DNA from: Candidatus Omnitrophota bacterium | GTDB lineage: Bacteria > Omnitrophota > Gorgyraeia > Duberdicusellales > 4484-171 | DNA: 64,000 nt | Direction of reading: 5' to 3' | Assembly (NCBI GenBank): GCA_021735655.1 | Contig: JAIPGM010000007.1 | Coordinates: 1 to 64,000, forward strand | In this document: in pieces, positions 1,744 through 21,471 of the stretch | Position numbering within the stretch: the first letter of the stretch is position 1 | Layout of the letters: every line of letters begins with the position of its first letter | Translations under genes and position numbers: made by a program | The notes under the pieces: generated by a model | Told to the model about the DNA's origin: nothing | The model's input: the letters and a program-made list of their open reading frames with translations, nothing else | The model's database searches: none

Positions 1744-3321
1744 TTAATTAGTCGTGTTGCTCTTAGCTTTTTTTCGATAAAGATAGCCTAAAGGACCACG
1801 GTCATGAAAGCGACTTTTAAAATGAAGGGCTGAAATAATCTTCGGTATTATTGTTTTTTCCAAATCAGAATTAAACTCATAAACTAACCGTGAAATCTTA
1901 GACAAAGCATATATCATCGTTCTTTTGATTCGCCCCGGAGAGGTAGATAGTAAATTACGCTTTCCAATTAGAAAAGCCATAGTACCTACTTTTTTCTTGT
2001 ACGCTCTAGTATAAGGGAAAAAAACTTCTTCCCAAATTAAGGTATCATCATAAAGCATACGTTGATAAAAAGTGCTATGTTTATAAGGATTATCGGCGTT
2101 CTGATGAATCTGTAAACCGTAGTTTTGATAGTCTTCTTTTAGCCACCAATCTTTAAAACCATATTGCTCTTTATAGGTCTCATAAATTATAGTGCCAGGA
2201 TAAGGTACGATAGCACCGGAAACCTGATAAATATGAACTTGATCAAAATGCCTTTTAATATATTTAATATTATTAACAACTGCCAATTCATCTTCCCAAG
2301 GAAAGCCAGTCATCAGATTGACATAAATACGAAATCCTAATTCAGCTGAACAATCAACTGCCTTATGGGCTTGCCCCAAAGTAATACCTTTACGAATTCT
2401 TTTTAAAGTTTCAGAATCTCCACTTTCAATCCCATAGCTAACCATATAACAACCAGCTTCCTTCATCGTTGATAACATTTCAGAATCAACGATATTGGCT
2501 CGAGTTGAACAACACCAAGCTATATCCAACTTGTTATCCTTTAAGGACTGGCAGAAATCTCGGACATATTTTTTATTAAAAGTAAAGGTATCATCAGCAA
2601 TAACAAAAGACTTAATATTATGAGCGTCTTTTCGATGTTTAATCTCTCTAATTACCTCATCGACCGGATGATACCTAATTTTTTGACCAAAGATAGCCCG
2701 ATCACAAAAAGTACAGCCGGCCGGACAACCCCTTGAACAATAAATACGATGAAAACCTTTTAGCAATCCCATGGAAGTACGAAAACGCTCTTGATCAAAA
2801 CAACTAAAATCCAATTTTGGTAAGTCGTTGAGATTAGCTATATACTCGCGTGAAGGATTATGCACTACACATCCTTTAGGATCTTTAAAACTAATTCCTT
2901 TTATTGATTCTAAAGATAGGCCTCTAGCCCCGCTCCAAAAATCACATAATTCTGAAAGGGTTATCTCGCCTTCGTTACGGACTACAATATCTACTCCATT
3001 ATCGAGTGCCTCATCAGGGCATGAAGTAGCATGCGGACCACCAGCAATTACAGTTAACCCTGGTTTCTTAATTCGTTTAATAGTTTTATAAACATCTGGG
3101 ACGCGATAAGTAGAAAGGTGAAAACCGACAAAGGTTGGTTGATAAACCTCAGTTGCCTCTGCCAAATCGTCCCATCCCAAAAAATTATTAAAAGAATTAA
3201 CAATAGCTTTGACCTCATAACCTTTTTCTTTCAGAACTGATGATAGGTAGGCAAAACCAGTTGGCATTTCCGAAATCGGATTGGGAAAAATTAAAATGAA
3301 CTTCTTAGCTTTAGTTAACAT
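1744..3321 (-). CDS. B12-binding domain radical SAM protein (class B radical SAM, methyltransferase-like)
   Basis: 525 aa. The N-terminal cobalamin-binding fold is glycine-rich (TVIAGGPHATSCPDEAL). The radical SAM cluster motif CPAGCTFC (CxxxCxxC) lies in RIYCSRGCPAGCTFCDRA. Confidence 0.75.
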   Translation of the reverse strand: MLTKAKKFILIFPNPISEMPTGFAYLSSVLKEKGYEVKAIVNSFNNFLGWDDLAEATEVYQPTFVGFHLSTYRVPDVYKTIKRIKKPGLTVIAGGPHATSCPDEALDNGVDIVVRNEGEITLSELCDFWSGARGLSLESIKGISFKDPKGCVVHNPSREYIANLNDLPKLDFSCFDQERFRTSMGLLKGFHRIYCSRGCPAGCTFCDRAIFGQKIRYHPVDEVIREIKHRKDAHNIKSFVIADDTFTFNKKYVRDFCQSLKDNKLDIAWCCSTRANIVDSEMLSTMKEAGCYMVSYGIESGDSETLKRIRKGITLGQAHKAVDCSAELGFRIYVNLMTGFPWEDELAVVNNIKYIKRHFDQVHIYQVSGAIVPYPGTIIYETYKEQYGFKDWWLKEDYQNYGLQIHQNADNPYKHSTFYQRMLYDDTLIWEEVFFPYTRAYKKKVGTMAFLIGKRNLLSTSPGRIKRTMIYALSKISRLVYEFNSDLEKTIIPKIISALHFKSRFHDRGPLGYLYRKKAKSNTTN

Positions 3322-3689: not shown

Positions 3690-4103
3690 TTAAAACTGAT
3701 TCTCATAGTATTTTTTATCTAAATCAGCCTCAGGCTTAAGAATCCAATAGCTATCTCTTTTTTGGTTAAATTCTGAATCCAAAAACTTTTTACCGAATAA
3801 TCGAGAAAAAACCGCAATCGGAGTAACCACCAAATAAAATAAAATAGATAAAATTAATCCGGTCAAAGCCCAACTGACAATAATGAATAGAGCTCTTAAA
3901 ATCTTATGTAATGGTTTCAAAGCTAAAGGAAAAATAAACGAGAATCCAAAAAGAAAAAACGAAACTACAAAAAACTGAGGGTAAAAAATTCCTTTGCGCC
4001 ATAAAAATAATAAACCCCACAAAATAAAAACTACGCTTAAAGTTAAGCCAAACCTAGCGAGTTCCCTTTTGTCGCTTTTTATGCCTTTTATTTCTTCAAT
4101 CAT
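3690..4103 (-). CDS. SxtJ-like small membrane protein
   Basis: 137 aa with several TM helices. The pattern RFGLTLSVVFILWGL...YLVVTPIAVFSRLFGKKFLD resembles SxtJ-family proteins. It sits 3 nt downstream of the carbamoyltransferase and upstream of the SxtK-like ORF, the same order as sxtI-J-K. Confidence 0.6.
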   Translation of the reverse strand: MIEEIKGIKSDKRELARFGLTLSVVFILWGLLFLWRKGIFYPQFFVVSFFLFGFSFIFPLALKPLHKILRALFIIVSWALTGLILSILFYLVVTPIAVFSRLFGKKFLDSEFNQKRDSYWILKPEADLDKKYYENQF

Positions 4104-4105
4104 AA

Positions 4106-5923
4106 TTAGTCCAACCCAAACTCTCTAAGCCAAGTAATATCTTTATCTAAAGGCTTTTGTTCTTTTTTCTCCAACAAATAGTTTCCGACAATAAGATAGT
4201 CCATATTAGTACACATAAAACACAAATAGGCATCTTCGGGGGTGCAAACTATCGGCTCACCACGCACATTAAAGGAAGTATTAATGATAACTGGACAACC
4301 ATACTTTTGATCCATTTTCCTTAATAACCGGTAATACAAAGGATTATCCTCCTCTTCCACGGTCTGAACCCTTGCTGAATAATCCACATGAGTAACTGCC
4401 GGAATTTCTGAACGCTCAATTTGCAATTGATCCAAACCAGAAAGACTCTCTTGCTCTTTAGTTATTGATTTTCGAACTCTCTGGCTAACCGGAGCAACCA
4501 AAAGCATATAGGGACTTTCGACTTCCAGCTCAAAGTAATCAGAAGCCTTCTCTTTAGTTACTGAAGGCGCAAAAGACCTAAAAGGCTCCCGAAACTTTAT
4601 TTTAAGGTTTATTATCTCCTGCATCTTGGCTGAACGAGCATCGCCAAGAATAGAGCGGTTGCCCAAAGCCCGGGGTCCAAACTCCATTCTCCCTTGAAAC
4701 CAACCGATTACTTTACCAGCGGCAATTAAATCAGCTACTTTTTCGGGAATTTCATCATCATTCAAAAAAGTGTAAGGGACATTATTGCTCTTTAAATACT
4801 CTTCAATACAATCCCTATCAAAGCTAGGCCCCAAATAAGAACCTTGCTGAAAGTCTTTTTTCCGATCAACTTCTCTTTTATTTCCTAGACATTGATACCA
4901 GGCAAACAAGGCTGCCCCCAAGGCGCCTCCGGCGTCTCCGGCAGCCGGCTGGATCCAAATATTTTTAAAGTTGCTTTCGCGTAAAATTCGACCGTTAGCA
5001 ACACAATTTAAAGCTACACCTCCGGCTAAACAAAGATTTTCCTGATTAGTCTGTTGATATAGATGATTGACCATGCGTAACATTACCTCTTCAGTTACCG
5101 CCTGAATAGATGCTGCTAAATCCATATGTTCTTGACTAAATTTAGACTCTGGTTTACGAGGCTCTTGGCCAAATAACCTATGAAAACGGCGGTTAGTCAT
5201 AGTCAAACCAAAGCAATAGTTAAAATAGTTCATATTTAATTTAAAGGAACCATCTTCCTTTAAATCGATCAATTCACGAAATATCAACTCCTTATATTTA
5301 GGCTCACCATAGGGAGCTAAGCCCATAAGTTTATACTCTCCGGAATTAACTTTAAACCCAAGATAGTAAGTAAAAGCTGAATAAAGTAATCCTAAAGAAT
5401 GCGGGAAATGAATTTCAGCTAAAATCTTTATCTGGTTATCTTTACCAACTCCATAACTAGCCGTAGCCCACTCACCTACCCCATCAATGGTTAAAAAAGC
5501 AGCTTTCGAAAAAGGTGAAGCGAAAAATGCCGAAGCAGCATGTGACTGATGATGTTCAGTAAAAATAATTTTTCCTTTATATTTAAGTTGACTACCGATA
5601 AAGTCCTTTATCCAAAGCTTTTGTTTTATCCATAAAGGCATTGCTTTTAAAAAAGAGCTAATCCCTCTCGGAGCATAGGCTAAGTAGGTTTCTAAAATAC
5701 GCTCAAATTTAATAAAAGGTTTATCGTAGAAAGCAACTAAATCTAATTCCTTAGAAGTAAGCCCACTATTCTCTAGGCAGTAATTAATGGCATTTTTAGG
5801 AAAGGAAGAATCATGTTTTTTGCGGCTGAATCTTTCTTCTTGGACAGCTGAAACTATTTGCCCGTCTTGGATGAGACAGGCGGCACTATCATGATAAAAG
5901 GCAGAAATTCCTAGAATATTCAT
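4106..5923 (-). CDS. NodU/CmcH-family carbamoyltransferase
   Basis: 605 aa. The N-terminal ILGISAFYHDSAACLIQDGQIVSAVQEERFSRKKHD is typical of the NodU/CmcH/SxtI family, and the protein has a C-terminal carbamoyltransferase domain. Confidence 0.85.
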   Translation of the reverse strand: MNILGISAFYHDSAACLIQDGQIVSAVQEERFSRKKHDSSFPKNAINYCLENSGLTSKELDLVAFYDKPFIKFERILETYLAYAPRGISSFLKAMPLWIKQKLWIKDFIGSQLKYKGKIIFTEHHQSHAASAFFASPFSKAAFLTIDGVGEWATASYGVGKDNQIKILAEIHFPHSLGLLYSAFTYYLGFKVNSGEYKLMGLAPYGEPKYKELIFRELIDLKEDGSFKLNMNYFNYCFGLTMTNRRFHRLFGQEPRKPESKFSQEHMDLAASIQAVTEEVMLRMVNHLYQQTNQENLCLAGGVALNCVANGRILRESNFKNIWIQPAAGDAGGALGAALFAWYQCLGNKREVDRKKDFQQGSYLGPSFDRDCIEEYLKSNNVPYTFLNDDEIPEKVADLIAAGKVIGWFQGRMEFGPRALGNRSILGDARSAKMQEIINLKIKFREPFRSFAPSVTKEKASDYFELEVESPYMLLVAPVSQRVRKSITKEQESLSGLDQLQIERSEIPAVTHVDYSARVQTVEEEDNPLYYRLLRKMDQKYGCPVIINTSFNVRGEPIVCTPEDAYLCFMCTNMDYLIVGNYLLEKKEQKPLDKDITWLREFGLD

Positions 5924-6014: not shown

Positions 6015-6905
6015 TCAAAAACGAAGGGTTATTCCTGAGCCGAAATAGAGGTCTTGATGAGTTTTCTTGATTTGAATAAAATACTCTAACTCGTTTTCAG
6101 TAAACAGCTTATGATTAAAAGTAAGGGCTAAGCCCAATGATTTATCCTGAACGTCACGGAGACTAAAAACTAAATCCTTATTTTTAGCTATTTTAACCTT
6201 TGCTCCAAGATAGACTTTTTTTAACTGACCAGACCCATAGTCAACAATGAAGCTTAAACCCAATTTACGGCTAAAGTTCCAGCGGCCGTATAGACTAATA
6301 ATCTTTTCCCTTTTTAAATCACCCACCCCAATCCCTAAACGGTATTTTATGGCTCCCTTTTTAGGATAAATGTTAGGCGATTCAACCTGAACTTTAAAAT
6401 TAAAAACACTCCCTCGGCCTCCCGATAAAATATACTTAAGTCTATTACGTTCGTTAATCTGCCAAAATCCATCAAAAACAATAGACTCTTTTACCCTCTT
6501 TTTTGTCTTAAGTTTTGCCTTCTCATAAGAGTAAACTATTTTCTGCTGCTTGTTTAACTGCCAAATACCACCGAAAGTAAGCGTCTCGGGATTTCGCTTT
6601 CTTTTAACTTCAAAGCTAAGACGATTAAATTTATCAGCCCGCCACAAGCCCTTCAACTTCAAAAAAGAAACTATCTGCTTATTCTTCTCTGACTTGGTTT
6701 TAACTTCAAAGGTTATAAAATCAGCTCCGGCCTCAGTAATCTTTCCCTTTAGAGTTAGCTTATTATCTATGGAACTCTTATCTTCCTCGGCCTTAAAAAC
6801 TAATTCATGGTTTGAAGTTAGCTTCCAACGACCATCAAAAGCAGAATTTCCAATAAACAAAAGATTATCCTTATCTAAAGAAAGTTTTGATTTAGTTTTA
6901 CTCAT
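6015..6905 (-). CDS. hypothetical protein with five Trp-containing beta-type repeats
   Basis: 296 aa, lysine-rich, no obvious signal peptide. The motif G-x-W-x-[LI]-x4-[KR]-[LI]-x-[FY] recurs five times: DGRWKLTSNHELVF, KGLWRADKFNRLSF, GGIWQLNKQQKIVY, DGFWQINERNRLKY, YGRWNFSRKLGLSF. Confidence 0.4.
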   Translation of the reverse strand: MSKTKSKLSLDKDNLLFIGNSAFDGRWKLTSNHELVFKAEEDKSSIDNKLTLKGKITEAGADFITFEVKTKSEKNKQIVSFLKLKGLWRADKFNRLSFEVKRKRNPETLTFGGIWQLNKQQKIVYSYEKAKLKTKKRVKESIVFDGFWQINERNRLKYILSGGRGSVFNFKVQVESPNIYPKKGAIKYRLGIGVGDLKREKIISLYGRWNFSRKLGLSFIVDYGSGQLKKVYLGAKVKIAKNKDLVFSLRDVQDKSLGLALTFNHKLFTENELEYFIQIKKTHQDLYFGSGITLRF

Positions 6906-6961: not shown

Positions 6962-7768
6962 CTATAACTTACTATTTTCCAATAGGTTATGTAAAAGGGT
7001 CCTATTGGAGGCGCAGATAAATCCGGGGTTTTTCAAGCTTTCCTTGTTGTAACTAAAAGGAGTCCCGTCTAGGTTAGCAACAACTGCTCCTGAAGCCTCA
7101 GCTATCGCTTGTCCAGCAGCCGTATCCCACTCCATAGTTGGACCACTACGCAAATATAAATCAGCTTGGCCTTCGGCAACTCGGCAAAATTTTAGTGAAC
7201 TTCCAGCATGAATAACAACAGGATTAGTAAATGAAGAAATCATTCTATCCTCTTCCTTGCTACTATGCGAACGGCTTCTAACCACGGTTATTTTATCAAG
7301 CAAAGGTTTCCTGGTTCTGATTGGTTTAGATTTACCGCCCTTATCTTGCCTAAAAGCTCCTTTGGATTTTAAGCCAAAATATAGTTGATCATAAGCCGGT
7401 AGAACAACTACCCCAAAAACAGGAATGGTTTTTTCAATTAAAGCAATATTAACCGTAAACTCGCCGTTTTTTTGGATAAACTCTTTAGTCCCGTCCAAAG
7501 GATCAACCAACCAAAAACTATCCCAACCGCTTCTTTGAGAAAAAGGTATTTCTTTAGCCTCTTCTGAAATAATCGGAATCTCAGGAAAAGCTTCTTTTAA
7601 ACCAGCGGCGATTACTTCTTGAGCTAGTCGGTCAGCTAAAGTTAAAGGGCTATTATCTTTTTTTAAATTAACTTCGAAATCTGAAGATTTGTATACTTCT
7701 ACTACTCTTTGTGAGGCAAGTGAGGCTATCTCGAGGATTTTTTCAATCTGAGAATCAGAAAAGTTCAT
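6962..7768 (-). CDS. cysQ: 3'(2'),5'-bisphosphate nucleotidase (inositol monophosphatase family)
   Basis: 268 aa with IMPase motifs WLVDPLDGTKEF and WDTAAG. It is adjacent to cysC and sat. Confidence 0.75.
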   Translation of the reverse strand: MNFSDSQIEKILEIASLASQRVVEVYKSSDFEVNLKKDNSPLTLADRLAQEVIAAGLKEAFPEIPIISEEAKEIPFSQRSGWDSFWLVDPLDGTKEFIQKNGEFTVNIALIEKTIPVFGVVVLPAYDQLYFGLKSKGAFRQDKGGKSKPIRTRKPLLDKITVVRSRSHSSKEEDRMISSFTNPVVIHAGSSLKFCRVAEGQADLYLRSGPTMEWDTAAGQAIAEASGAVVANLDGTPFSYNKESLKNPGFICASNRTLLHNLLENSKL

Positions 7769-7772
7769 GCTT

Positions 7773-8384
7773 TTAGATATAACCTTTTTGAGATAAATAA
7801 TTTAAAATGCTCTTTGCTGCTTCTTCCTTGGTTAGCTTACCAGTATCAATAACTATTTCAGCCTGCTCTGGTTCTTCATAGGGAGCAGAAACCCCGGTAA
7901 ACTGCTTAATTTCACCACTGCGAGCCTTTTTATAAAGCCCCTTAGGGTCTCTTTGTTCGCAAATTGCAAGATCAGCCTTAACAAAAACTTCAATAAAATC
8001 ACCTTGCTTCATAAGGCTCCGGGCCTTATCTCTGTCTTTTCTGTAAGGAGAAATAAAAGCAGTTATAGCTAAAGTTCCGGCTTCAGAAAATAATTTTGCC
8101 ACCTCACTAATTCTTCGAATATTTTCTTGGCGATCTTCCGGAGAAAAACCCAAGTTACTATTTAAGCCGTGGCGAACATTGTCACCATCTAGAAGATAAA
8201 CCTGGTGTTCCTTCTCAAAAAGCATTGCCTGAAGCTCAACAGCAACTGTAGATTTACCGCTTGAAGGTAAACCCGTAAACCAAATAACTGCCCCCTTGTG
8301 CTTATTGCGCTTTTCTCTGTCCTGTTTAGATATCCCTGATTCATGCCATGTAATATTTGTGCTCTTTCTTTGTTCTTGATTCAT
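7773..8384 (-). CDS. cysC: adenylyl-sulfate kinase
   Basis: 203 aa. Canonical P-loop [26 protein letters not shown] and FISPY motifs are all present. Confidence 0.85.
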
Positions 8385-8387
8385 TTT

Positions 8388-9665
8388 TTACCTCTTACTA
8401 TAATATTTAGCTAATATTTCAGAAACTGGTTTACGCATTACTCGCTCGTCAACTACTTCTTGATTTTGTAATTTTTTTCTTAATTCTTTTCCGGAAATTA
8501 AAATCTGTTTATATCCTTTACCTTTAGACTCTTCAACTAAACCAACTCGACCTAACTCTTGAAAGTAAGCAGCAAATCCAACCTTAATCGGCTCTATTAT
8601 CAGTGCTCCGTTTAGGTTGGAGAATTTCTCTTGGGCGTCGAAATCACCCCAAGCCGGAGCTCCATCATCGAAAGGAGCGTCAGCGTGCTTGCGACCAATA
8701 ATAATATTACTAAAGCCATAGTTCTGACGATAGATAGCATGCATTATTGCTTCTTTTGGTCCGGCATAAAACATCTTCATATCCAGACCAATCAGCATAA
8801 GTTGCTGACCTAAATCATAACCCTTGCTCTTCCAAAGTTCTGAATCCTTATCACCCTGGCCTAGAAGTTTATTCTCGATTAAAACCTCATAAGTTTTCAT
8901 TCTTATGTCCGCTGGAACATCATCAGATTTAGTAGCGCCAACCAAAGGATTCAAAACAACTCCGGTAAAAAACCCTTCTCGAGTAAGTTCCTCAGCTCCG
9001 TGGACCAAGGCATATTCGTGAGCCCGGTGTAAAGCATTCCTGGTTTGAAAAGCAACTATTTTTTGCCAGCCCTTCTTTTTAAATATTTCTCTGGTTTCAG
9101 AAGGAGTAAGCATGTATTTTCCATATTCAGGATGTAATTTCTGAGGTAAGGCTAAAATCTTGCCGCCTAAAAGATAATCACGCTGATCATCGCTAAATAT
9201 ACGCGGACCAGGATGATCAATGCGTTCAGTTCCATATACTGACTTATTGTAAGCGGTTTTGTCAAAAGGATAAATATCAGATATCTCTAGAGACCCAATT
9301 ATTTCCTGAGACTCATTCCTAACTACTACTGTCTCACCAACTTCTAAATTATCAGCCTCGGACTTAGATATTGCAAAAGCTAAAGGTATAGTCCAGGCAT
9401 AAGGCTTACCATTTCTTTCTATATATTCATCAGCTAAAACTTTATTGAACTCAAGCCTAGCCATCGGACCTTCAAGCGGAGATAGACCACCGTCAGCAAT
9501 TCGATAAAATATTGATAAATCAGCATTAGAAATATTATAAACTTTTAATCTAGATATCTTATCGAGAAAAACTTCTCTCTCTAATTTAGGAATAAATCGA
9601 TCAATTAAGCCGCAACCACCATGAGCTAAAATACTATTGCCATCCATTATTTTCTTCCCCCTCAA
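8388..9665 (-). CDS. sat: sulfate adenylyltransferase (ATP sulfurylase)
   Basis: 425 aa with QTRNALHRAHE and GRKHADAPFDDG motifs. The true start may be the internal Met at about 9647. Confidence 0.8.
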   Translation of the reverse strand: MRGKKIMDGNSILAHGGCGLIDRFIPKLEREVFLDKISRLKVYNISNADLSIFYRIADGGLSPLEGPMARLEFNKVLADEYIERNGKPYAWTIPLAFAISKSEADNLEVGETVVVRNESQEIIGSLEISDIYPFDKTAYNKSVYGTERIDHPGPRIFSDDQRDYLLGGKILALPQKLHPEYGKYMLTPSETREIFKKKGWQKIVAFQTRNALHRAHEYALVHGAEELTREGFFTGVVLNPLVGATKSDDVPADIRMKTYEVLIENKLLGQGDKDSELWKSKGYDLGQQLMLIGLDMKMFYAGPKEAIMHAIYRQNYGFSNIIIGRKHADAPFDDGAPAWGDFDAQEKFSNLNGALIIEPIKVGFAAYFQELGRVGLVEESKGKGYKQILISGKELRKKLQNQEVVDERVMRKPVSEILAKYYSKR

Positions 9666-9708: not shown

Positions 9709-10437
9709 TTAACTTAAAAATTTATTAACTTCTAAATATTTTATTATTTTCTTTGCTGCTTCCTCAGGTGAAATATCTTTGGTGCTAAGAGTAATTTCGG
9801 GGTTTTGAGGCGGCTCATAAGGATCATCAATACCAGTAAAAAGTTTCAATAATCCCTGCCTTGCTTTTTTATAAAGACCGCGAGGATCTCTCTTTTCACA
9901 CTCCTCAAGCGGTGTATCAACATATACTTCAATAAAATTATTACACATTTTCCTCACAAAACTTCTTGATTCTTGATAAGGTGAAATAAAAGAAGCTATA
10001 ACAATAACTTTATTTTTCTCAAGCAAGCTAGCTAATAACCCTACTCGCTTGATATGTCTATCTCTCTCAGACTTAGTAAAACCGATCTTAGGAAATATTG
10101 CTCTGATTTTTTCACCGTCTAAGCGTTCAACATTAAAAGACTTAGCCGTAAGTATCCGATAAAGATTCTCAGCAATGGCTTTTTTCCCTGCGGCAGAAAG
10201 TCCGGTTAACCAAATCACACAAGGAATCGCCTCTCTACGACCAAAAGAAATTTTATCCCAAATTCGTTCATGAAAAAAATAAATCGCCATCTTGCTAACA
10301 AATTCCAAAAAACCAACCGTAAAGGCTAAACTTATTTTTCTTGTAAAAATAAATACAATGATTGATGTGGCTATAGTGCCGGCTGATCTCCAAGTAATAG
10401 CCTTAAGTATCGAACGTGCCTTTGTCTCTCTAAACAT
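9709..10437 (-). CDS. DUF2061-like N-terminal membrane domain fused to an APS-kinase-like domain with degenerate catalytic motifs
   Basis: 242 aa. Residues 1-65 contain RSILKAITWRSAGTIATS...FFHERIW (DUF2061-like, two TM helices). The C-terminal domain aligns with CysC, but the P-loop is GLSAAGKKA (canonical GLPSSGKST), DGDNVR is replaced by DGEKIR, and ENIRR by RHIKR. The FISPY and RDPRGLYKKAR blocks are retained. Confidence 0.6.
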   Translation of the reverse strand: MFRETKARSILKAITWRSAGTIATSIIVFIFTRKISLAFTVGFLEFVSKMAIYFFHERIWDKISFGRREAIPCVIWLTGLSAAGKKAIAENLYRILTAKSFNVERLDGEKIRAIFPKIGFTKSERDRHIKRVGLLASLLEKNKVIVIASFISPYQESRSFVRKMCNNFIEVYVDTPLEECEKRDPRGLYKKARQGLLKLFTGIDDPYEPPQNPEITLSTKDISPEEAAKKIIKYLEVNKFLS

Positions 10438-10440
10438 AAG

Positions 10441-11583
10441 TTATTTATTAAAAAACCTTCTAGTTGTTGATATTACATAGTTTATTTGCCGGTCAGTTAG
10501 CCAAGGATGGATCGGAAGGCTCAAAATTCTAGTAGCCATACTTTCGGCAACTTTAAGCTTACCACTTATCTTTACCCTCTTAAAAGCCTTCATCTTATGA
10601 AGACAAACCGGATAATAAATTCGTGAATGTATACCCTTGGAATTCAAGTAGTTAAGAAGTTTATCTCTTTTTGCCGAAATTCTCAAGGTATAAAGATGGT
10701 AAACATGTCTACAAGCCTTAGATTCACTGGGAATTTTAAGCTCTTTAATATCTTTAAAAGCATTGTTATATTTTTGAGCGACACTTCTTCTTAAATCATT
10801 AAACTTATTAATATGTTTTAACTTAGCTAAAAGTACTGCTGCCTGCATTGAATCAAGGCGCGAGTTATAGCCGATATAAGCAGCTCTATACTGGCTAGTT
10901 TGACCGTGATTGCGCAAGATAGTTAAAAAAGAAAACAACTTGCTATCATTAGTTGCAATCAAGCCACCGTCACCAAAAGCACCGAGATTTTTAGAAGGAA
11001 AAAAACTAAAAGCTCCACAATCGCCCAGAGAACCTGCTTGTTTGCCATTAAACTTTGCACCAAAACTTTGAGCCGTATCTTCAACCACAAATAAGCCACG
11101 GCTTTTCGCTAATTTTGTAATTTCGCTCATATTAGCTGCCAAACCATATAAATGCACCGGGATAATACCTACTGTATTCTTATTAATCGCTTTTTTTATT
11201 TTTAAAGGATCAATATTGTAACTTTCCGAATCAATATCAACAAATACCGGCGTGGCCCCTGAGTGTACAATACTTTCAGCAGTAGCAATAAATGTAAAAG
11301 GCGTAGTGATAATCTCGTCTTTCTTATCGAAATGCTCCTTACCTTTTATCTTTAAAGCCAAAGCCTTTAAAGATAAAATTAAAGCATCGGTTCCTGAAGC
11401 AACACCAAGGGCATGCTTTGTTCCTAAATAGTCTTCGGCCTTAGCTTCAAAATCCGAAACTGCCTTGCCTAAAATCCATTGCTGAGACTTAAGGCACTGT
11501 TTAATATTCTGATCAATCTCTTTTTTTAAAAAAGAATACTCTTTCTTTAAGTCTAGGAGTGGTATATTAAAATTTTTCTTCAT
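10441..11583 (-). CDS. DegT/DnrJ/EryC1/StrS-family PLP-dependent sugar aminotransferase
   Basis: 380 aa with typical family blocks GTDALILSLKAL, FSFFPSKNLGAFGDGG and the catalytic Lys region. Confidence 0.8.
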   Translation of the reverse strand: MKKNFNIPLLDLKKEYSFLKKEIDQNIKQCLKSQQWILGKAVSDFEAKAEDYLGTKHALGVASGTDALILSLKALALKIKGKEHFDKKDEIITTPFTFIATAESIVHSGATPVFVDIDSESYNIDPLKIKKAINKNTVGIIPVHLYGLAANMSEITKLAKSRGLFVVEDTAQSFGAKFNGKQAGSLGDCGAFSFFPSKNLGAFGDGGLIATNDSKLFSFLTILRNHGQTSQYRAAYIGYNSRLDSMQAAVLLAKLKHINKFNDLRRSVAQKYNNAFKDIKELKIPSESKACRHVYHLYTLRISAKRDKLLNYLNSKGIHSRIYYPVCLHKMKAFKRVKISGKLKVAESMATRILSLPIHPWLTDRQINYVISTTRRFFNK

Positions 11584-11591
11584 TTGCTATC

Positions 11592-14518
<2,927 letters not shown>

Positions 14519-14522
<4 letters not shown>

Positions 14523-15475
14523 TTATAAGCCTCCCTAAACCAATCTACTGTCTTCTTTAGACCTTGGGCAAAATCGACCTTTGGAGAAAACCCTAATAAT
14601 TCTTTTGCCTTTTGTATATCAGCATGGGTCTTCCTCACATCTCCAAGTCGAATAGGACAATAGTTAGGCTCTAACTTGCTTCCGATAATCTCCTTTAAAT
14701 TATTAAATAAATTATTCACCGAATTAGGTATTCCTAAGCCAACGTTAAATGCTTCCGAACCAACGTTATCCTTCTCAAGACACCGAATATTCATATCAAC
14801 CACATCGCTAATAAAAGTAAAGTCCCTCTCCTGATTTCCGTCTCCATATATCGGAGGACTCTTCCCTTCGAATAAACAATTTATGAACTTCGGAATAACA
14901 ACTGCGTATTCATCCTCTAGAGATTGACGCGGACCATATACATTAAAATACCTTAAATTTAAAATTTTCATATTATAAATTTTACTAAAAACATAGGAAT
15001 ATTGTTCAACGATCAACTTTGTGGCAGCGTAAGGTGAAATTGGTTTTGCAATCTCATTTTCTTTCTCTGGAAAATCATCCCTCTCTCCGTATATAGAGCT
15101 TGAAGAAGCACAAACTATCCTTTTTATACCAGCTTCTTTAGCCGCTAAAAAAAGATTTAAAGTTCCGCTAACATTAACTTTATGATAATCAAGTGGAGCC
15201 TCTACTGACTTCGGAACACTGCGTAAGGCTGCCTGGTGAGAAATAAGCTCTACTCCCGGTAAAACCTGATCCAATATTTTTTGATCGGCAAAGTCACTTT
15301 TAATAAACTTTATTTTACTAAAACTTTGTTCCAAATTGTCAAGATTACCAGTTATAAGGTTATCTACTACAGTGACCTCAGCGCCTAATTTTACAAGTTT
15401 ATCAACTATATGTGAACCAATAAAGCCAGCACCACCAGTAACTAAAACTTTTCTATCCTTAAGGCTATTAGACAT
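14519..15475 (-). CDS. NAD-dependent nucleotide-sugar 4-epimerase (WbpP/UDP-GlcNAc or UDP-GlcA 4-epimerase-like)
   Basis: 318 aa SDR enzyme with [13 protein letters not shown], catalytic YAATK and [11 protein letters not shown]. It is paired with a UDP-HexNAc dehydrogenase, as in WbpO/WbpP. Confidence 0.7.
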
Positions 15476-15477
15476 AT

Positions 15478-16779
15478 TTAAAGCACCTCCAAATTAAGAT
15501 ATTTTCTTTTATATACGTTGCGAGTATCAAAAACAAACTTTGAGTTCTTTCTAATAAGTTCATAGTCTAGATAAGAGTGATCAGTAACAATAACCACACA
15601 ATTATATTTTTGCAAATTACTCTTACTAAGAGCTACCGCTTTTAAATTAATTCCGTTTATCTTTAAGTATGGTATCAACGGATCATAAAAGCTCACCTTG
15701 GATTTTTTGCTTAGCTTTTCAATAATATCTAAAGCCGGAGACTCTCTTAAATCTTTAACATCTTTTTTATAAGTAACCCCAACAATCAAAATCTTAGCTT
15801 TTCTTAAAGAAACGCCCCTAATTTTAAGTGATTTCTCAAGCCGCTCAACTACATATCTAGGCATAAAGTGATCAATGTAAGCAGCTGAATCAATCATCTT
15901 GGTCTTAAAACCCATCTTTTTTGCCTTCCAGGAAAGATACATTGGATCAGCCGGAATGCAATGGCCGCCAACGCCTGGCCCAGGATAAAAAGGCATAAAA
16001 CCAAAAGGCTTTGTCTTTGCAGCCTCAATTACCTCCCAAATACTTATCCCTAGCTTATGAGCTACAATAGCAAACTCATTAACCAGGGCAATATTTACCA
16101 AACGAAAGGTATTTTCGAGAAGTTTTGCGCTTTCAGCTACCTCAGGACTAGATACTGAAAATACCTGTTTAATAATCTTAGAGTACAAAGCTTTGGCTAG
16201 ACTGGTCGATTTAGGGGATAACCCACCAACGACTTTTGGTATTTTTGCCAAAGTATGTTTTTTATCTCCCGGGTTTATTCTTTCAGGAGAAAAACAAAGA
16301 AAAAAATCTTTTTCGCTCTCCAAACCAGACTTCTCAAGAATTGGTAAAACTACCTCTCGAGTAGTTGTCGGATAAGAGGTGCTCTCCAAAACGATTAGCT
16401 GAGACTTCCGTAAATACTTCTTAATTAACTTACTAGCTGCAACTACATAAGAAATATCCGGTATCTTTACCTTACGCAAAGGCGTTGGCACGCAAATAAT
16501 TAAAATATCAGAATCAGCCAAAACTCGCCTTTCAGTGGTCGGTAAAAACTTCTTAGCTTTAATCAACGCTTTAATCGTCTTTGGGTCAATATCAACGATA
16601 TACTGCTTTGCCTCTTTCAATTTGTTTACCCGTAAAAGATTATTATCGAAACCGTAAACAAAAAAACCTCGCTTTGCAAAATCTACCGCCAAAGGTAAGC
16701 CAACATAGCCCAGGCCGATAATACAAATTTTAGCCTTTTTTTTAATTATTTTTTCTTTAAGTACCTGGTAGTTACTCAT
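15478..16779 (-). CDS. UDP-N-acetyl-D-glucosamine/mannosamine 6-dehydrogenase family (WbpO/Cap5O/TviB-like)
   Basis: Nucleotide-sugar dehydrogenase with IGLGYVGLPLAV, the catalytic Cys in GGHCIP and a C-terminal UDP-binding domain. The start is probably the ATG at 16779 (MSNYQVLKEK); the track's longer ORF begins at a TTG. Confidence 0.75.
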   Translation of the reverse strand: MSNYQVLKEKIIKKKAKICIIGLGYVGLPLAVDFAKRGFFVYGFDNNLLRVNKLKEAKQYIVDIDPKTIKALIKAKKFLPTTERRVLADSDILIICVPTPLRKVKIPDISYVVAASKLIKKYLRKSQLIVLESTSYPTTTREVVLPILEKSGLESEKDFFLCFSPERINPGDKKHTLAKIPKVVGGLSPKSTSLAKALYSKIIKQVFSVSSPEVAESAKLLENTFRLVNIALVNEFAIVAHKLGISIWEVIEAAKTKPFGFMPFYPGPGVGGHCIPADPMYLSWKAKKMGFKTKMIDSAAYIDHFMPRYVVERLEKSLKIRGVSLRKAKILIVGVTYKKDVKDLRESPALDIIEKLSKKSKVSFYDPLIPYLKINGINLKAVALSKSNLQKYNCVVIVTDHSYLDYELIRKNSKFVFDTRNVYKRKYLNLEVL

Positions 16780-16798
16780 CTTGATTTTAAAAAGCAAT

Positions 16799-18139
16799 CT
16801 ATCTTCCGATTCCGATATATTCAAATCCTAGGTCACGAACCTTATCGCGATCAAACATATTTCTTCCGTCAACGATCAACGGATAACGCATCAACTTCTT
16901 AATCTTTTTTAAATCTAGCTTCTTAAACTCTTCCCATTCGGTCAACAAGCAAAGACAATCACTGCCCTTTACGGCCGCATAAGGATCTTTAGCAAACTTT
17001 AACTTAGCTGTTTTAAAGATATCCTTTGCCTCAGAATAGGCTTGGGGATCATAGGCTGAAATTATTGCTCCTTGTTTTAAGAATGAATTTACGATATCAA
17101 CCGAGGGAGCAAAACGCATATCATCGGTATCGGGTTTAAACGATAAGCCTAAAATTGCAATTTTCTTATTTTTTATAATCCAAAGCCGATCTTTTACCTT
17201 CTCGATGAAATTATGACGTTGACCTTGATTAATATTTTTAATCTCTTTCAATAAATTAAATTCATAACCTAACTTCTTAGAAATATAAAAAAATGCTTCG
17301 ATATCCTTAGGGAAACAAAAACCACCATAGCCTAAGCCAGCATCCAGAAAGTCTCTACCAATTCTCTTATCCATACCCATGGCTTGGGCTATTTTTTCAA
17401 TATCGGCTCCGGCTAAATCGCAAACTCGCGAAACCGCATTAATAAACGATACCTTGGTAGCTAAAAATGAATTGCAGGCATGCTTTATTAGCTCAGCCGT
17501 ATTAATATCAGTAACTATAATCGGGACCTTAATTTTGGCATAGATATCTTTTAATATATTTTCAGCCTTCGTTGACTCAACCCCGATAACTATTCTGTCC
17601 GGAGAGAAAAAATCATAGATTGCCTTACCTTCCCTTAAAAATTCAGGGTTAGAGGCAATATCAAAGTCTCGGCTATTTTTTTTGTAGCGAGAAATAATAT
17701 CCTTTATCTTCTTTCCGGTCTGAACCGGAACAGTTGATTTTCCAACAATTAACTTATAAGAATTAAGATTATTAGCAACTACCCGAGCAACATTCTCTAT
17801 GGCGCTAAGATCAGCTGAACCATCTTTCTGCGGTGGAGTACCGACAGCAATAAAAATCACTTGGCTCTTTCTAATTGCCTCAGTTAACGAGGCTGAAAAA
17901 ACCAAGCCACCACTCTTAATACCTTTTTTAACCAAAGGCTCTAGATCCGGCTCAAAGAACGGTACTTTTTTGGCTTTTAAACTCTGGATTTTTTTCTTAT
18001 CTTTATCAACACAAATTACCTTATGCCCTAATTCACAAAAACAAGCTGCAGCGACTAAGCCAACGTGACCAGCCCCAACCACACAAAGATTATACTTTTT
18101 AACTGTTTTATTCTTTTGCTTGTTTGACTTTACTTTCAT
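16799..18139 (-). CDS. ugd: UDP-glucose 6-dehydrogenase
   Basis: Blocks VVGAGHVGLV, GGFCFPKD and GLSFKPDTDDMR are present. The likely start is MKVKSNKQ at about 18139; the track ORF extends to 18202. Confidence 0.8.
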   Translation of the reverse strand: MKVKSNKQKNKTVKKYNLCVVGAGHVGLVAAACFCELGHKVICVDKDKKKIQSLKAKKVPFFEPDLEPLVKKGIKSGGLVFSASLTEAIRKSQVIFIAVGTPPQKDGSADLSAIENVARVVANNLNSYKLIVGKSTVPVQTGKKIKDIISRYKKNSRDFDIASNPEFLREGKAIYDFFSPDRIVIGVESTKAENILKDIYAKIKVPIIVTDINTAELIKHACNSFLATKVSFINAVSRVCDLAGADIEKIAQAMGMDKRIGRDFLDAGLGYGGFCFPKDIEAFFYISKKLGYEFNLLKEIKNINQGQRHNFIEKVKDRLWIIKNKKIAILGLSFKPDTDDMRFAPSVDIVNSFLKQGAIISAYDPQAYSEAKDIFKTAKLKFAKDPYAAVKGSDCLCLLTEWEEFKKLDLKKIKKLMRYPLIVDGRNMFDRDKVRDLGFEYIGIGR

Positions 18140-18152
18140 TAATACCTTTCTT

Positions 18153-20561
18153 TTAATAAGTAGTATAATATTGAGATTTAGCCCCCTCATGCGTCTTATC
18201 AAAAGTTATGCTCAAACTGGGAAAGGCCTTTAAAACAAATTCAAACCAAACAGTATAGTTTTTTCCGCCAACTGAGGCCCTCTTAACATCTAAACCGAGG
18301 TCAAGCCACCAACAATGCAAATCAGTTCTTACTTTATATTGCTGTTCAAATAAGTCGCCACGATTATATTCATAACGCAAATAACTTCCTAACTTTACCT
18401 TCGGGGTTAACTGATAGGAAAAATCAAAAGTTCCCTGAGTGTCAGTTACCCGGGTATAGCGATGGCCATAGGTAAAAGAGTACCTTTCCTTCTCTACTTC
18501 TTCACCAGCTTCAAACACCTTATATTTACCTTTGGTAGTAAAATCAAGATTAAAAGAAGTTATTCTTCCTAGCTTGTTACCGTCTGAATTAGCATCATAA
18601 GTAACGTTAGAGGTAAGTGATAAGCCCTCCTTAGGATAGATCTCTAAATCAGCGGTTATAGTAGTAATTCGACTATTAGCACCTTCAGGATTAATCGTAT
18701 AGTTAAGAGCCGGGCTAAAATAAACAAAGTCCCACTTCTCATTTTCCTTATTTTTAACCTGCAACTTATTGCTTAGAACAAAACTAACTGTCTCGGACCG
18801 ACTTAAGCTATCAATTCCATCAAATTGAAAAACATTAGCGTTAGCTACAGTTGGCTCATGAGCGTAACTATAAGTTATCTCAGGAGTTATAAGGTGGCGC
18901 ACCTTATCTATCTCCTCGCCAAAAATATCCCAATCCACATCAAAAACCTTATAAAGTCTGCTACTTAAAGATGTTCCGCTGGTAAAGCCAATTCGCCAAA
19001 TATCCTCATCGCCAAAAGCATTCTTAGAGTAATATATTGAATTTAAACCAATGTTAGGTGAAATACTAAGCCACTTTATCTTATCCGAGTAGCTTAAGGT
19101 ATTTTTACCGTAAAATCTAAAAGCATCATCATCCAAATCAGAATTAGCATTCTTTTTAGCTAGATTAGATATCTTTTCACTAGAGTTAAAGTAAAGCTTA
19201 CTGTTTCCTAACTGTTGACTGAAAAAATCATAGCTAAGCTCTGGAAGGTACTCACTCATGCTTTCGTAACGATTAAACCTTTTCTGAGTTAATAAAGATA
19301 AAGAAGAATTCTGAAAAGGATAACGCATGAGAAGGTAACTCTTGGGGTTAGGGTTAAGCTCATACTCTTCCTCAAAGAAATCTTTAACAAAAAACTCATC
19401 GGAAAATTTATGAAACTCAGCAATTATCGATAAGTTCTTTATCGGTTCACCGTCATAAGATAATTCTGCCTTGTAGCGATCGTCTTCTAAATATTTATCA
19501 GCCTTTCCTGAGCGATCACCGTGAACTTTAAAAAGACTATTTCGCTTGCCGATTTGATAAAGCTTATCTTGAATCATATAGTAACGAGCCAAGGCTTTAC
19601 CCATTTTTTTGCTCTCCATCTTATGGGTTAAACCAAACCCCCAGCCTCTTTCCTCATACCAATCAATATTAAACCAATCCGTATGCTCTTCATTGAGTTG
19701 ATAGCGCCAGCGAGTCAGTAAAAAGTAACCCAGCTCATCATTGTGCCCCGGAACTATCTCAGCCGGAAAAGAGGTATCCTTTAAAGACTGGGAAAAATAA
19801 GGAATATAGAATACCGGAACTTTCCCCACCTTTAAAGTTACTTTTCTGGCTACTACTTTATCGCCGGGATAAATGGTTACCTCTTTTGACACCATCCGGT
19901 AGTGCGGCTCAGCTAAATCACAAGTTGTCATGTAGCCGTTTCTCATTACCAATTTGTTTTTACCTATTTTTTCTCCTTCCGGAGCCTCTCCATAAAAAGG
20001 AGTACTCTCAAAACGAATATTATTTATATCAGCATTATAAGTATTAAAATCATAAACTGCTGTTTCACCATAGAGAACTGTTCCCTCTCTGATTACTTTA
20101 ATATTTCCAGTAATATTAGCGATATTAGTATTAACGTCAAAGATTCCCTCGTCACAGTAAAGCTCAACATCTTTCTGGACCATCTTCACATTGCCTTTAG
20201 CATAAATTTTACCCACACCGCGCTGAAAATCTATTTCATCAGCATCAACAATTACCGGTATTTTTTCACTACCAGAAGTGGCTTTTTGATCAGGCTTAGA
20301 GCTATCATCGGTCTTTTTGTCAGTTTTAGCTTCTTTAGCTTTTTCATCTTGTTTAACTTCTTGAACTAGAGCCTTATCTTCTAAAGGAGATACCTTTTCC
20401 TCTCTAGTTAAAGAAACCGCATCAAGAGTAGACTTAACTGTAGTCAATTTACTAACCAATATCCCTTTGTTTTTGGAAGCAGAAGATAGCGGCGTGGTTT
20501 CACTATTAGAAAAAGCAACCAGCGGTAAGAAAAAAACAACCAGTACAATCAGTTTTTTCAT
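18153..20561 (-). CDS. lptD: LPS-assembly outer-membrane protein LptD (OstA family)
   Basis: About 800 aa. Signal peptide MKKLIVLVVFFLPLVAFS. The OstA-like N-domain is PVIVDADEIDFQRGVGKIYAKGNVKMVQKDVELYCDEG...GNIKVIREGTVLYGE. The large beta-rich C-terminal region ends in an aromatic residue. Confidence 0.6.
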   Translation of the reverse strand: MKKLIVLVVFFLPLVAFSNSETTPLSSASKNKGILVSKLTTVKSTLDAVSLTREEKVSPLEDKALVQEVKQDEKAKEAKTDKKTDDSSKPDQKATSGSEKIPVIVDADEIDFQRGVGKIYAKGNVKMVQKDVELYCDEGIFDVNTNIANITGNIKVIREGTVLYGETAVYDFNTYNADINNIRFESTPFYGEAPEGEKIGKNKLVMRNGYMTTCDLAEPHYRMVSKEVTIYPGDKVVARKVTLKVGKVPVFYIPYFSQSLKDTSFPAEIVPGHNDELGYFLLTRWRYQLNEEHTDWFNIDWYEERGWGFGLTHKMESKKMGKALARYYMIQDKLYQIGKRNSLFKVHGDRSGKADKYLEDDRYKAELSYDGEPIKNLSIIAEFHKFSDEFFVKDFFEEEYELNPNPKSYLLMRYPFQNSSLSLLTQKRFNRYESMSEYLPELSYDFFSQQLGNSKLYFNSSEKISNLAKKNANSDLDDDAFRFYGKNTLSYSDKIKWLSISPNIGLNSIYYSKNAFGDEDIWRIGFTSGTSLSSRLYKVFDVDWDIFGEEIDKVRHLITPEITYSYAHEPTVANANVFQFDGIDSLSRSETVSFVLSNKLQVKNKENEKWDFVYFSPALNYTINPEGANSRITTITADLEIYPKEGLSLTSNVTYDANSDGNKLGRITSFNLDFTTKGKYKVFEAGEEVEKERYSFTYGHRYTRVTDTQGTFDFSYQLTPKVKLGSYLRYEYNRGDLFEQQYKVRTDLHCWWLDLGLDVKRASVGGKNYTVWFEFVLKAFPSLSITFDKTHEGAKSQYYTTY

Positions 20562-20562
20562 A

Positions 20563-21471
20563 TTACTGTTTCTCAAGCTGCTCCTTAACCAGCAAGGCGG
20601 CTCCGACTATCCCCGGCTGTTTTAACTGAGCCTTGAGAACTTTTAAATTCTTCACTTGAGGCCACATGGCCTGTTGTCTTATCACCTGTAAAAGATATGG
20701 TCTAAACAAACCTAAGGCTCCAGACACCCCTCCACCTAGGATAATCGCCTCGGGGTTAAATACATTAACCATGCCCGATAAAAACTTACCTAAATTATAT
20801 GAAAATTCCTTCCAAAGCATAATAGCCTGTTTTTCACCTTTTAGGCCCCTTTGAAATATCTCACTTACTTCCTTAATCTTAGTTTTATTTCCTTTGAGTT
20901 GCCTATAGCGCTTTAAGAGATAACCATTACCAGTATAAGTCTCAATACAGCCTCTGGCTCCACAGCCACAAAGGTTTCCCTTTAAAGTTAAAGGTACATG
21001 ACCTAACTCAGCAGCGCTGGTTCTCCCAGTTAGAAGCTTGCCATCAATTAATACTGCTCCGCCTAAGCCAGTGCCGAGAGTTAAAAAAATAGCTTGTTTA
21101 AACCCCCGACCAGCACCACAGCGAGCCTCAGCAAGACCAAAAAGATTAGCATCATTACCTATAGCTACCGGAAGCTTGAGCTGTTTGATAAGCACCTCTT
21201 TTAAGGGAAAGTTCTTCCAACCAGGAATGTTGGGAAGATAATAGATGAATCCTTTTTTTGTATCGATTATGCCGGGGGCACCAATACCAAGGCCTTTAAT
21301 TGAAAAACCTTTAAAATCCTTTAATAAAGATTTAAGGTTCTGGATAAAAACGGTTTTTTTTCTTAAGTCAGCCGATTGGTAAATTCTTTCTTTAACTACT
21401 ACCCCCTTGGGGCTTACCAACCCAGCTTTTATATAAGTACCACCCCAATCAATGCCTAAAAAGACTGCCAC
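20563..21471 (-). CDS. ROK-family sugar kinase (glucokinase-like)
   Basis: 302 aa with LGIDWGGTYIKAGLV, the ROK signature region LGTGLGGAVLIDGKLLTG and the Cys motif CGCGARGC. Confidence 0.75.
   Translation of the reverse strand: MAVFLGIDWGGTYIKAGLVSPKGVVVKERIYQSADLRKKTVFIQNLKSLLKDFKGFSIKGLGIGAPGIIDTKKGFIYYLPNIPGWKNFPLKEVLIKQLKLPVAIGNDANLFGLAEARCGAGRGFKQAIFLTLGTGLGGAVLIDGKLLTGRTSAAELGHVPLTLKGNLCGCGARGCIETYTGNGYLLKRYRQLKGNKTKIKEVSEIFQRGLKGEKQAIMLWKEFSYNLGKFLSGMVNVFNPEAIILGGGVSGALGLFRPYLLQVIRQQAMWPQVKNLKVLKAQLKQPGIVGAALLVKEQLEKQ

Follow-up and report, generated by a model that had tools for sequence, protein, structure and literature searches.

Results

A 64,000-nucleotide stretch of DNA from a Candidatus Omnitrophota bacterium (contig JAIPGM010000007.1, positions 1 to 64,000; hereafter the window) contains an open reading frame (ORF) whose product joins a DUF2061 hairpin to a domain with the fold of adenosine 5'-phosphosulfate (APS) kinase. 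We propose that this fusion protein is probably a non-catalytic, membrane-anchored paralog that binds APS or 3'-phosphoadenosine 5'-phosphosulfate (PAPS) and serves the co-encoded ATP sulfurylase (Sat), CysC and CysQ as a sensor/regulator or as a scaffold. The protein would be catalytically inactive, or at best severely impaired, and would be held by the hairpin at the cytoplasmic face of the membrane, having kept the APS/PAPS pocket and the Gly-Lys of the P-loop and lost the Ser that ligates Mg2+, the Asp by the 3'-OH and the Lys of the lid. It would thus form a non-catalytic subunit of the PAPS-synthesis module (sat, cysC, cysQ) within a nucleotide-sugar/lipopolysaccharide (LPS)-polysaccharide locus: APS or PAPS would be bound at the membrane, for sensing, for organizing the sulfate-activating enzymes or possibly in a hand-off role, and phosphorylation would be carried out by the soluble CysC. 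A first-pass annotation of this DNA had already suggested a probably non-kinase paralog with a preserved APS/PAPS scaffold, an idea that residue mapping, drift within the clade and pairing within operons now support. Its reading frame and the peptides quoted from it stand unchanged, with FISPY at residues 150-154 and RDPRGLYKKAR at residues 183-193.

Residue changes at the active site

The roles of the active-site residues have been described for Mycobacterium tuberculosis CysC. In that enzyme the phosphates are bound by Lys456 of the P-loop, Ser457 ligates Mg2+ directly and Ser458 forms a hydrogen bond with the β-phosphate; Asp478 holds a Mg-bound water, and Asp480 lies at 3.6 Å from APS O3' and binds the 2'-OH; the lid Lys562 touches the γ-phosphate and the ribose 2'-OH, and Arg559 stacks on the ATP adenine (PMC4373884). 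The phosphosulfate is bound by Arg483, Arg497 and the backbone of Ile523/Ser524, and the APS adenine is sandwiched by Phe492 and Phe576 (PMC4373884). We carried these roles over to the fusion protein by motif register and by HMMER alignments to five solved enzymes. For the catalytic, Mg2+ and ATP positions, Lys456 corresponds to K85, Ser457 to K86, Ser458 to A87, Asp478 to D107, Asp480 to E109, Lys562 to R186 and Arg559 to R183. For the APS contacts, Arg483 corresponds to R112, Arg497 to R125, Phe492 to F120, Phe576 to F200, and Ile523/Ser524 to I151/S152.

This comparison reveals that three catalytic or Mg/ATP positions are altered (Ser to K86, Asp to E109, Lys to R186) and that the APS contacts are all intact: R112, R125, F120, F200 and I151-S152-P153 are present, and they are conserved at about 100% among the nearest relatives of the protein, just as the first-pass annotation had supposed for the binding scaffold. 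As the reference for column comparison we used 105 fusions with canonical motifs, taking columns that are at least 90% conserved. The Walker A hydroxyl is absent, position 86 being Lys in the fusion protein and Ser or Thr in at least 95% of the canonical fusions and in all aligned solved APS kinases, and the LDGD motif reads LDGE, position 109 being Asp in 100% of the 105. The lid keeps R183 and carries a conservative Arg for Lys at position 186. Alignment to the solved enzymes therefore bears out both of the losses that had been read from the sequence, Ser/Thr to Lys in Walker A and DGD to DGE, and adds R186 as a third.

The replacement of ENIRR by RHIKR, also read at first as degeneracy, turned out to be normal: all 105 canonical-motif fusions have H128 and 99% have R131, the A. 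pernix enzyme (2yvu) reads RHLKR, and the M. thermolithotrophicus protein 8a8h, deposited as an APS kinase, reads MHNRV at this place. The APS-binding arginines of the fusion protein are R112 and R125, both present. We also considered T87A as a sign of inactivity and rejected it, since GKSA together with an intact DGD is found in non-fusion APS kinases.

It is instructive to set these residues against a different explanation, which we regard as unlikely, namely that the protein is a working membrane-bound APS kinase isozyme in which Glu109 and Arg186 substitute for the usual residues and Lys86 makes up for the Mg2+ contact or takes its place, giving one soluble and one membrane kinase. The fold is complete and the protein scores above the cutoff of the NCBIfam model TIGR00455 apsK (193.3 bits versus 138.7); moreover K85, D107, R183 and every APS contact are kept, and the changes of Asp to Glu and Lys to Arg are conservative. 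Yet Lys has taken the place of a residue that ligates Mg2+ directly, and either D87A or D89A, both within the DGDN motif of human PAPSS1, abolishes APS-kinase activity (PMC8528679).

Conservation and selection in the degenerate clade

The DUF2061-APS_kinase architecture is found in all of the best 120 database matches to the protein. About 100 of these carry GLSG[S/A]GKST and DGDxxR, and the non-canonical matches are the nearest relatives of the window protein; in a neighbor-joining tree 13 of these form one clade, nested among canonical Omnitrophota fusions. Within this 13-member clade the DGD triad reads DGE, DGG, HGS, HGK, NGE, YGD or QGS, position 86, next to the P-loop Lys, may hold A, K, R, S, T or V, and in the lid R183 gives way to H, N, Q or Y and K186 to R or T. 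Relaxation is confined mainly to positions 81, 82, 86, 87, 107, 109, 183, 186, 196 and 219 and a few others. In contrast, some 80 other positions, including all APS contacts and the DUF2061 motif residues, are at least 90% conserved, and 69 columns are invariant; G84, K85, R112, F120, R125, S152-P153-Y154, R158, D184, Y189 and F200-T201-G202 are invariant or nearly so. Because the catalytic positions vary across the clade, its conserved function cannot depend on those residues. This also counts against a working isozyme, as the same positions read HGS, HGK, NGE, QGS or DGG in close relatives, with the P-loop GK followed by AE, VA or RT, and as both the adenine-stacking Arg183 and position 219 are relaxed as well.

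One may ask whether the gene is simply a redundant duplicate on its way to a pseudogene, with no function of its own, given that the canonical cysC in the operon makes its kinase activity dispensable. We consider this very improbable, and the selection data largely refute it. The ORF is intact at 242 aa, as it is in most relatives at 55-77% identity. In comparison with the closest relative (77% identity, DNA from locus L091), the ratio of nonsynonymous to synonymous substitutions (dN/dS) is 0.11 overall, 0.06 in DUF2061 and 0.12 in the kinase domain, close to the value of 0.06 for the adjacent sat, all of these values being rough since dS is near saturation. An overall rate acceleration in the degenerate clade was also looked for and rejected: its root-to-tip distance (0.651) equals that of the canonical fusions (0.643). 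The 69 invariant columns and an operon position that is conserved across phyla and sulfurylase types likewise speak against decay. Relaxed catalytic columns, a conserved remainder and low dN/dS together are the signature of a pseudoenzyme that has kept its ligand pocket rather than of a gene in decay. The three marks of a pseudoenzyme paired with an active paralog are all found here: catalytic residues are lost, selection is purifying, and the active paralog occurs alongside.

Pairing with a canonical APS kinase across loci

The same fusion was sought in other genomes, as the first-pass annotation had advised, together with its neighbors; it is widespread and mostly canonical, and most of the degenerate forms are paired in their operons with a live kinase. 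A scan of species-representative genomes added 80 loci. For the comparison, 59 non-redundant fusion loci were typed by their residues in the aligned P-loop and DGD columns, and hidden Markov models (HMMs) were run over as much as 10 kb of flanking DNA. A canonical APS_kinase domain lies in the same operon for 17 of 23 degenerate fusions but for only 1 of 36 canonical ones (Fisher p = 5.7e-9). Three of the six degenerate exceptions stand at contig ends, and one has only GKSA and behaves canonically; the remaining two (L048, L060) are genuine.

The canonical fusions have no other APS-kinase domain nearby in 35 of 36 cases. They usually stand in cysN-[cysQ]-fusion-cysD operons whose CysN lacks a kinase domain (Gemmatimonadota, Acidobacteriota, some Omnitrophota), or else alone between Wza and Wzc in exopolysaccharide loci. 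Since a canonical fusion is the one APS kinase that its operon has, decay of the motifs follows redundancy, and the protein is retained. The partners of the degenerate fusion, by comparison, are arranged in many ways: degenerate fusion-sat-cysC; degenerate fusion-sat::cysC, where sat::cysC is one fused protein; degenerate fusion-cysD-cysNC-cysQ in Desulfuromonadales, including the cultured Geothermobacter hydrogeniphilus; degenerate fusion-cysD-cysN-cysC-cysQ-wzx in the cultured Deferribacter thermophilus; and cysC-degenerate fusion-cysD-cysN in Ignavibacteriae. This variety indicates that the degenerate module is tied to PAPS synthesis whatever the type of sulfurylase.

These loci bear on the isozyme explanation in both directions. 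The canonical fusions, as sole APS kinases of their operons, are evidently real kinases, and the Bacteroidales locus L008 suggests that two active copies can coexist; but there is a tight association between motif loss and having a canonical kinase nearby. L008 (7992-11640, in a metagenome-assembled genome (MAG)) is the only locus with both a canonical-motif fusion and a CysN that bears an APS-kinase domain, the latter cut off by the contig end; the locus could be an example of the redundant stage that comes before decay.

A second and larger degenerate group reads GLPASGKK[A/E/V] in the P-loop, DS[L/H/R/K] for DGD, FPG for FTG and GHY for GLY, and each of its fusions opens a cysD-cysN(C)-cysQ operon. 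It includes loci in Geothermobacter hydrogeniphilus HR-1 (L051, 10001-10780) and Deferribacter thermophilus BMA (L058, 10001-10729), two cultured strains that make the group experimentally tractable, and further loci L035, L041, L047, L049, L052, L054 and L057. The near-invariant GLPASGKK[A/E/V] of the Desulfuromonadales-type group indicates that Lys at the Mg-ligand position arose more than once.

This recurrence raises a further alternative: a neofunctionalized enzyme whose scaffold binds another ligand (PAP, PAPS, another nucleotide or a lipid-linked sugar) or carries out a Mg-independent reaction at the membrane. Lys86 appears independently in the window protein, in P0053, in P0126 and, as GKK[A/E/V], in all 10 Desulfuromonadales-type members, and so looks selected; G143K is fixed in 13 of 13 members of the clade of the window protein, where 97% of canonical fusions have Gly; and the gene is embedded among sugar-modification genes. 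However, the active site shows no new invariant polar or catalytic residue except K143 in one clade and K86 in a different one, the positions that were once catalytic vary and have not been fixed anew, and what has been kept is exactly the set of APS-specific contacts (the two Arg, the two stacking Phe and the ISP backbone). These retained contacts argue that the ligand is still a nucleotide of the adenosine 5'-phosphosulfate type, and we judge a new enzymatic function to be improbable.

Domain architecture and predicted topology

The fusion protein is 100% identical to P0001, an NCBI Omnitrophica MAG protein annotated as adenylyl-sulfate kinase. The N-terminal two-helix DUF2061 fusion, proposed in the first-pass annotation, is clear in both profile and model. 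The DUF2061 family (PF09834) matches residues 10-61 with 61.6 bits against a cutoff of 23.1, over profile positions 1-52 of 52, and APS_kinase (PF01583) matches residues 72-217 with 181.8 bits against a cutoff of 21.1 (E 1e-53); a phmmer search of the PDB finds 2gks with E 1e-45. The AlphaFold model, built with 45 homologues in the alignment, has a mean predicted local distance difference test (pLDDT) score of 86. It shows two long helices, residues 6-32 and 35-62, with a two-residue turn between them and pLDDT values of 80-90, followed by a full APS-kinase alpha/beta domain. In Foldseek comparisons the kinase domain superimposes on solved APS kinases with root-mean-square deviations of 1.3-1.6 Å and target-normalized template-modeling (TM) scores up to 0.95 (for 5cb8, 1.5 Å and 0.94).

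Hydrophobicity in the protein peaks at the hairpin, which has a Kyte-Doolittle maximum of 1.89 over 19 residues and positively charged flanks; its conserved residues are R8, S9, K12, W16, R17, T24, G42, E45, K49, H56-E57-R58 and W60. It is predicted to insert in the inner membrane, which would place the kinase domain at the cytoplasmic face. A related protein, P0124, is a single chain of CysN, DUF2061 and APS_kinase; its hairpin lies between two cytoplasmic enzyme domains, so that both ends of the hairpin should be cytoplasmic (in-in), and the chain makes the module physically part of the sulfate-activating complex. In P0137 and P0163 the CysN part precedes two domains of the APS-kinase type, the first degenerate and the second canonical, so that the pairing of dead and live domains occurs also in cis. 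Another arrangement is seen in P0173, a CysN-CysQ(Inositol_P)-APSK chain.

The dimer interface of APS kinases is formed by helices alpha2 and alpha3, whose conservation is 0.75 in the degenerate clade and in the canonical fusions alike. From sequence comparison the simplest expectation would be a homodimer, forming a four-helix bundle in the membrane. A heterodimer with CysC was considered as a tether and found no support: in alpha2 and alpha3 the fusion protein is only 20-25% identical to the CysC of the window, compared with 42% over the whole domain. This favors a homodimer, although the P0137 and P0163 tandems of dead and live domains mean that a heterodimer may still form.

Local operon and genomic neighborhood

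The features of the fusion gene and its operon are listed in Table 1. A canonical cysC had been described as lying next door; it is in the same operon but two genes away, with sat, which begins 43 nt beyond the fusion ORF, between them. The run of co-directional genes comprises an LptD-like gene, two UDP-glucose dehydrogenase paralogs, an epimerase, a GDP-mannose dehydratase, a GDP-fucose-synthase-like gene, a UXS-like gene, DegT, the fusion, sat, cysC and cysQ, and continues past cysQ with a conserved protein without Pfam match, a carbamoyltransferase and a B12/radical-SAM enzyme. DegT is the conserved upstream neighbor across the Omnitrophota clade, and synteny of sat with a degenerate fusion is seen in L001-L006 and L091. 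In every clade locus looked up we found the LptD-like gene, two UDP-glucose dehydrogenases, epimerase, UXS-like gene, DegT, degenerate fusion, Sat, CysQ and the no-Pfam protein, with Sat either fused to a canonical APS-kinase domain (e.g. L001, L003) or followed by a separate cysC.

Table 1. Positions in the window of the fusion gene, its domains and motifs, and the adjoining genes.
Feature	Positions	Strand	Remarks
DUF2061-APS_kinase fusion ORF	9709..10437	minus	ATG start, 242 aa plus stop
DUF2061 two-helix hairpin, residues 6-62	10252..10422	minus	Pfam PF09834, AlphaFold helices, hydropathy, conservation; predicted membrane anchor
Linker, residues 63-72	10222..10251	minus	pLDDT about 57 (low model confidence)
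APS-kinase-like domain, residues 73-242, complete fold	9712..10221	minus	PF01583, PDB phmmer, Foldseek
P-loop GLSAAGKKA, residues 79-87	10177..10203	minus	G84, K85 kept; K86 for Mg2+-ligand Ser/Thr; A87 for Ser/Thr
DGEKIR, residues 107-112	10102..10119	minus	D107, R112 kept; E109 for Asp near APS 3'-OH
Lid segment RDPRGLYKKA, residues 183-192	9862..9891	minus	R183 kept; R186 for lid Lys
sat, ATP sulfurylase	8388..9665	minus	PUA_2 + ATP-sulfurylase, no kinase domain; directly downstream, same operon
Canonical cysC, presumed active APS kinase of operon	7773..8384	minus	PF01583 236.9 bits; NF003013 293 bits versus cutoff 163
cysQ-like PAP phosphatase (Inositol_P family)	6962..7768	minus	kept in operon of relatives
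DegT-family aminotransferase	10441..11583	minus	stop codon 3 nt upstream of fusion ATG

The membrane sulfotransferase that had been suggested as a partner found no local support, with none within about 35 kb. Sulfotransfer Pfam families are absent from the 26 window ORFs covering 118-30668, and no sulfotransferase was found among the recurrent neighbor families of degenerate loci or in the 10 kb past the left edge of the window on the source contig; a regular-expression search for the 5'-PSB motif gave no match, a crude test whose negative outcome is no proof of absence. The recurrent neighbors of degenerate loci are nucleotide-sugar enzymes, a GT2 glycosyltransferase and the Wzx flippase, and on that basis the PAPS is plausibly used for sulfation of glycans or LPS.

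Several features of the surroundings deserve separate mention. The interval 10441-20576 (minus strand) holds two tandem UDP-glucose/GDP-mannose dehydrogenase paralogs, an epimerase, a UXS-like decarboxylase/epimerase and DegT, by an LptD/OstA-like protein of 807 aa, a set that is syntenic in all Omnitrophota relatives examined and that we take to resemble a UDP-glucuronate-derived amino-sugar pathway (Ara4N-like). As called by program, ORFs 12518-13576 and 13479-14522 (minus strand) share 98 nt; for the GDP-fucose-synthase-like gene the called TTG start probably lies too far upstream, a later Met (MDKSKQF...) being more likely. Among all ORFs of at least 110 aa, 63 of 65 lie on the minus strand and both plus-strand ORFs overlap minus-strand genes, so that the whole 64-kb window is essentially co-directional.

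Directly downstream of cysQ, at 6015-6905 (minus strand), lies the no-Pfam protein of 296 aa, which has counterparts in the same place in L003 (13465-14478) and L005 (12192-13223). Its family has about 126 members, nearly all Omnitrophota hypothetical proteins and typically of about 335 aa, with internal repeats of about 45 aa that carry an invariant G..W. We considered this protein as the missing transferase and rejected it, its model being an all-beta repeat structure (pLDDT 68) unlike a sulfotransferase; the model has no PDB fold match at E < 0.02. Beyond it, in the interval 3690-5923 (minus strand; also L090 9219-9802), come a carbamoyltransferase of 605 aa, then a 137-aa no-Pfam protein and a 52-aa DUF5989 ORF called on the source contig; a B12-binding radical-SAM enzyme at 1744-3321 follows this group. 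These are possible glycan-tailoring genes.

Discussion

Several observations weigh against a non-catalytic, membrane-anchored subunit. With K85, D107 and R183 retained and both D109E and K186R conservative, Glu109 might still act near the 3'-OH; the human PAPSS1 mutants of the DGD aspartates are to Ala only, so that an effect of Asp to Glu at position 109 can be drawn only by analogy; and two members of the clade keep GKST and differ by DGE alone. E45 and K49 of the hairpin, charged and conserved, lie within helices that are predicted to insert in the membrane. The degenerate loci L048 and L060 have no APS kinase within 5-10 kb, and neither a conserved membrane partner nor a sulfotransferase was found near the degenerate fusions, in the window, in the degenerate loci or in the 10 kb beyond. 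Two counts are to be read with the same caution. Degenerate forms occur at a minimum of four places in the tree, including Geothermobacter and Deferribacter, but the neighbor-joining tree was not bootstrapped and the number of independent losses is approximate. Among the 150 best matches of an exhaustive HMM search over 1.84 billion representatives, 48 were fusions, and 16 of these 48 lacked DGD compared with 0 of 98 non-fusion APS kinases, a ranking biased by a query profile built from the degenerate clade.

We also put forward, tentatively, a more general form of the proposal: DUF2061-APS-kinase pseudoenzymes may be widespread in bacteria, and have evolved repeatedly, as a class of receptors or adaptors that handle APS and PAPS at the membrane. 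They would shed catalysis whenever a soluble APS kinase is available and be kept as Mg-independent PAPS/APS-binding subunits, with Lys86 replacing the metal, and they would either gate the activation of sulfate, in the manner of the fungal PAPS allosteric domain but acting in trans and bound to the membrane, or dock Sat/CysDN-CysC at the site of glycan assembly.

The fusion architecture is already in Pfam and in the databases, annotated as an ordinary kinase. In the literature searched, neither a DUF2061-APS kinase fusion nor a bacterial APS kinase that is inactive or bound to the membrane is described. Fungi are known to have non-catalytic APS-kinase-like domains; what is new here is a free-standing, probably membrane-anchored, bacterial form that recurs and is mostly paired with a live kinase. 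The DUF2061 fusions all bear the label adenylyl-sulfate kinase, and about one third of the sequence-diverse ones are without the DGD triad; as a result, APS kinases are counted too often when pathways are reconstructed, and a distinct component is missed. If the window protein is indeed a membrane subunit that binds APS/PAPS without catalysis, a functional handle would be gained for DUF2061, a domain of unknown function, the fungal PAPS-allosteric domain would have a bacterial parallel, and bacterial PAPS synthesis for glycan or LPS sulfation would be spatially organized or feedback-sensed at the membrane. If the receptor/adaptor proposal holds, this would be the first nucleotide-kinase pseudoenzyme found to organize bacterial sulfation. 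The complementarity rule, in which a canonical fusion is the sole kinase and a degenerate one mostly accompanies a live kinase, amounts to a natural experiment in pseudoenzyme evolution.

Comparison with known systems

Dead paralogs that partner active enzymes, of the prozyme type, are a general pseudoenzyme concept. The fusion protein resembles them in being a putatively inactive paralog, under purifying selection and co-encoded with its active counterpart; an interaction with CysC would be a conjecture.

Soluble CysC proteins (E. coli CysC, M. tuberculosis 4bzp, Synechocystis 5cb6, A. thaliana 3uie) share the fold (root-mean-square deviations of 1.3-2.6 Å) and the APS-binding residues, at 36-46% identity, but have no membrane hairpin and keep intact the Walker A Ser, the second Asp of DGD and the lid Lys. 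The canonical DUF2061-APS_kinase fusions of Gemmatimonadota, Acidobacteriota, Bacteroidota and some Omnitrophota are closer, with the same architecture and about 55-60% identity, and their DUF2061 motifs and interface helices are equally conserved. They differ from the degenerate forms in keeping GK[S/T][S/T], DGD and the lid Lys, and in being, in 35 of 36 cases, the only APS kinase of their operon or locus.

The C-terminal domain of fungal ATP sulfurylase (Penicillium chrysogenum 1i2d/1m8p; yeast MET3) has an APS-kinase fold without kinase activity. It matches the fusion protein in sequence (E 5.5e-28) and in fold, and it too coexists with a separate active APS kinase. The fungal domain, however, is soluble and fused to the C-terminus of ATP sulfurylase, while the fusion protein is encoded by a separate gene upstream of sat; unlike the fungal domain, the fusion protein has an N-terminal DUF2061 hairpin, is bacterial, and in other phyla pairs also with the non-homologous CysDN-type sulfurylase. 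In filamentous fungi the APS-kinase-like domain of ATP sulfurylase is a PAPS-binding allosteric module (PMC3779200), and by analogy it may be regarded as the closest functional counterpart of the protein described here.

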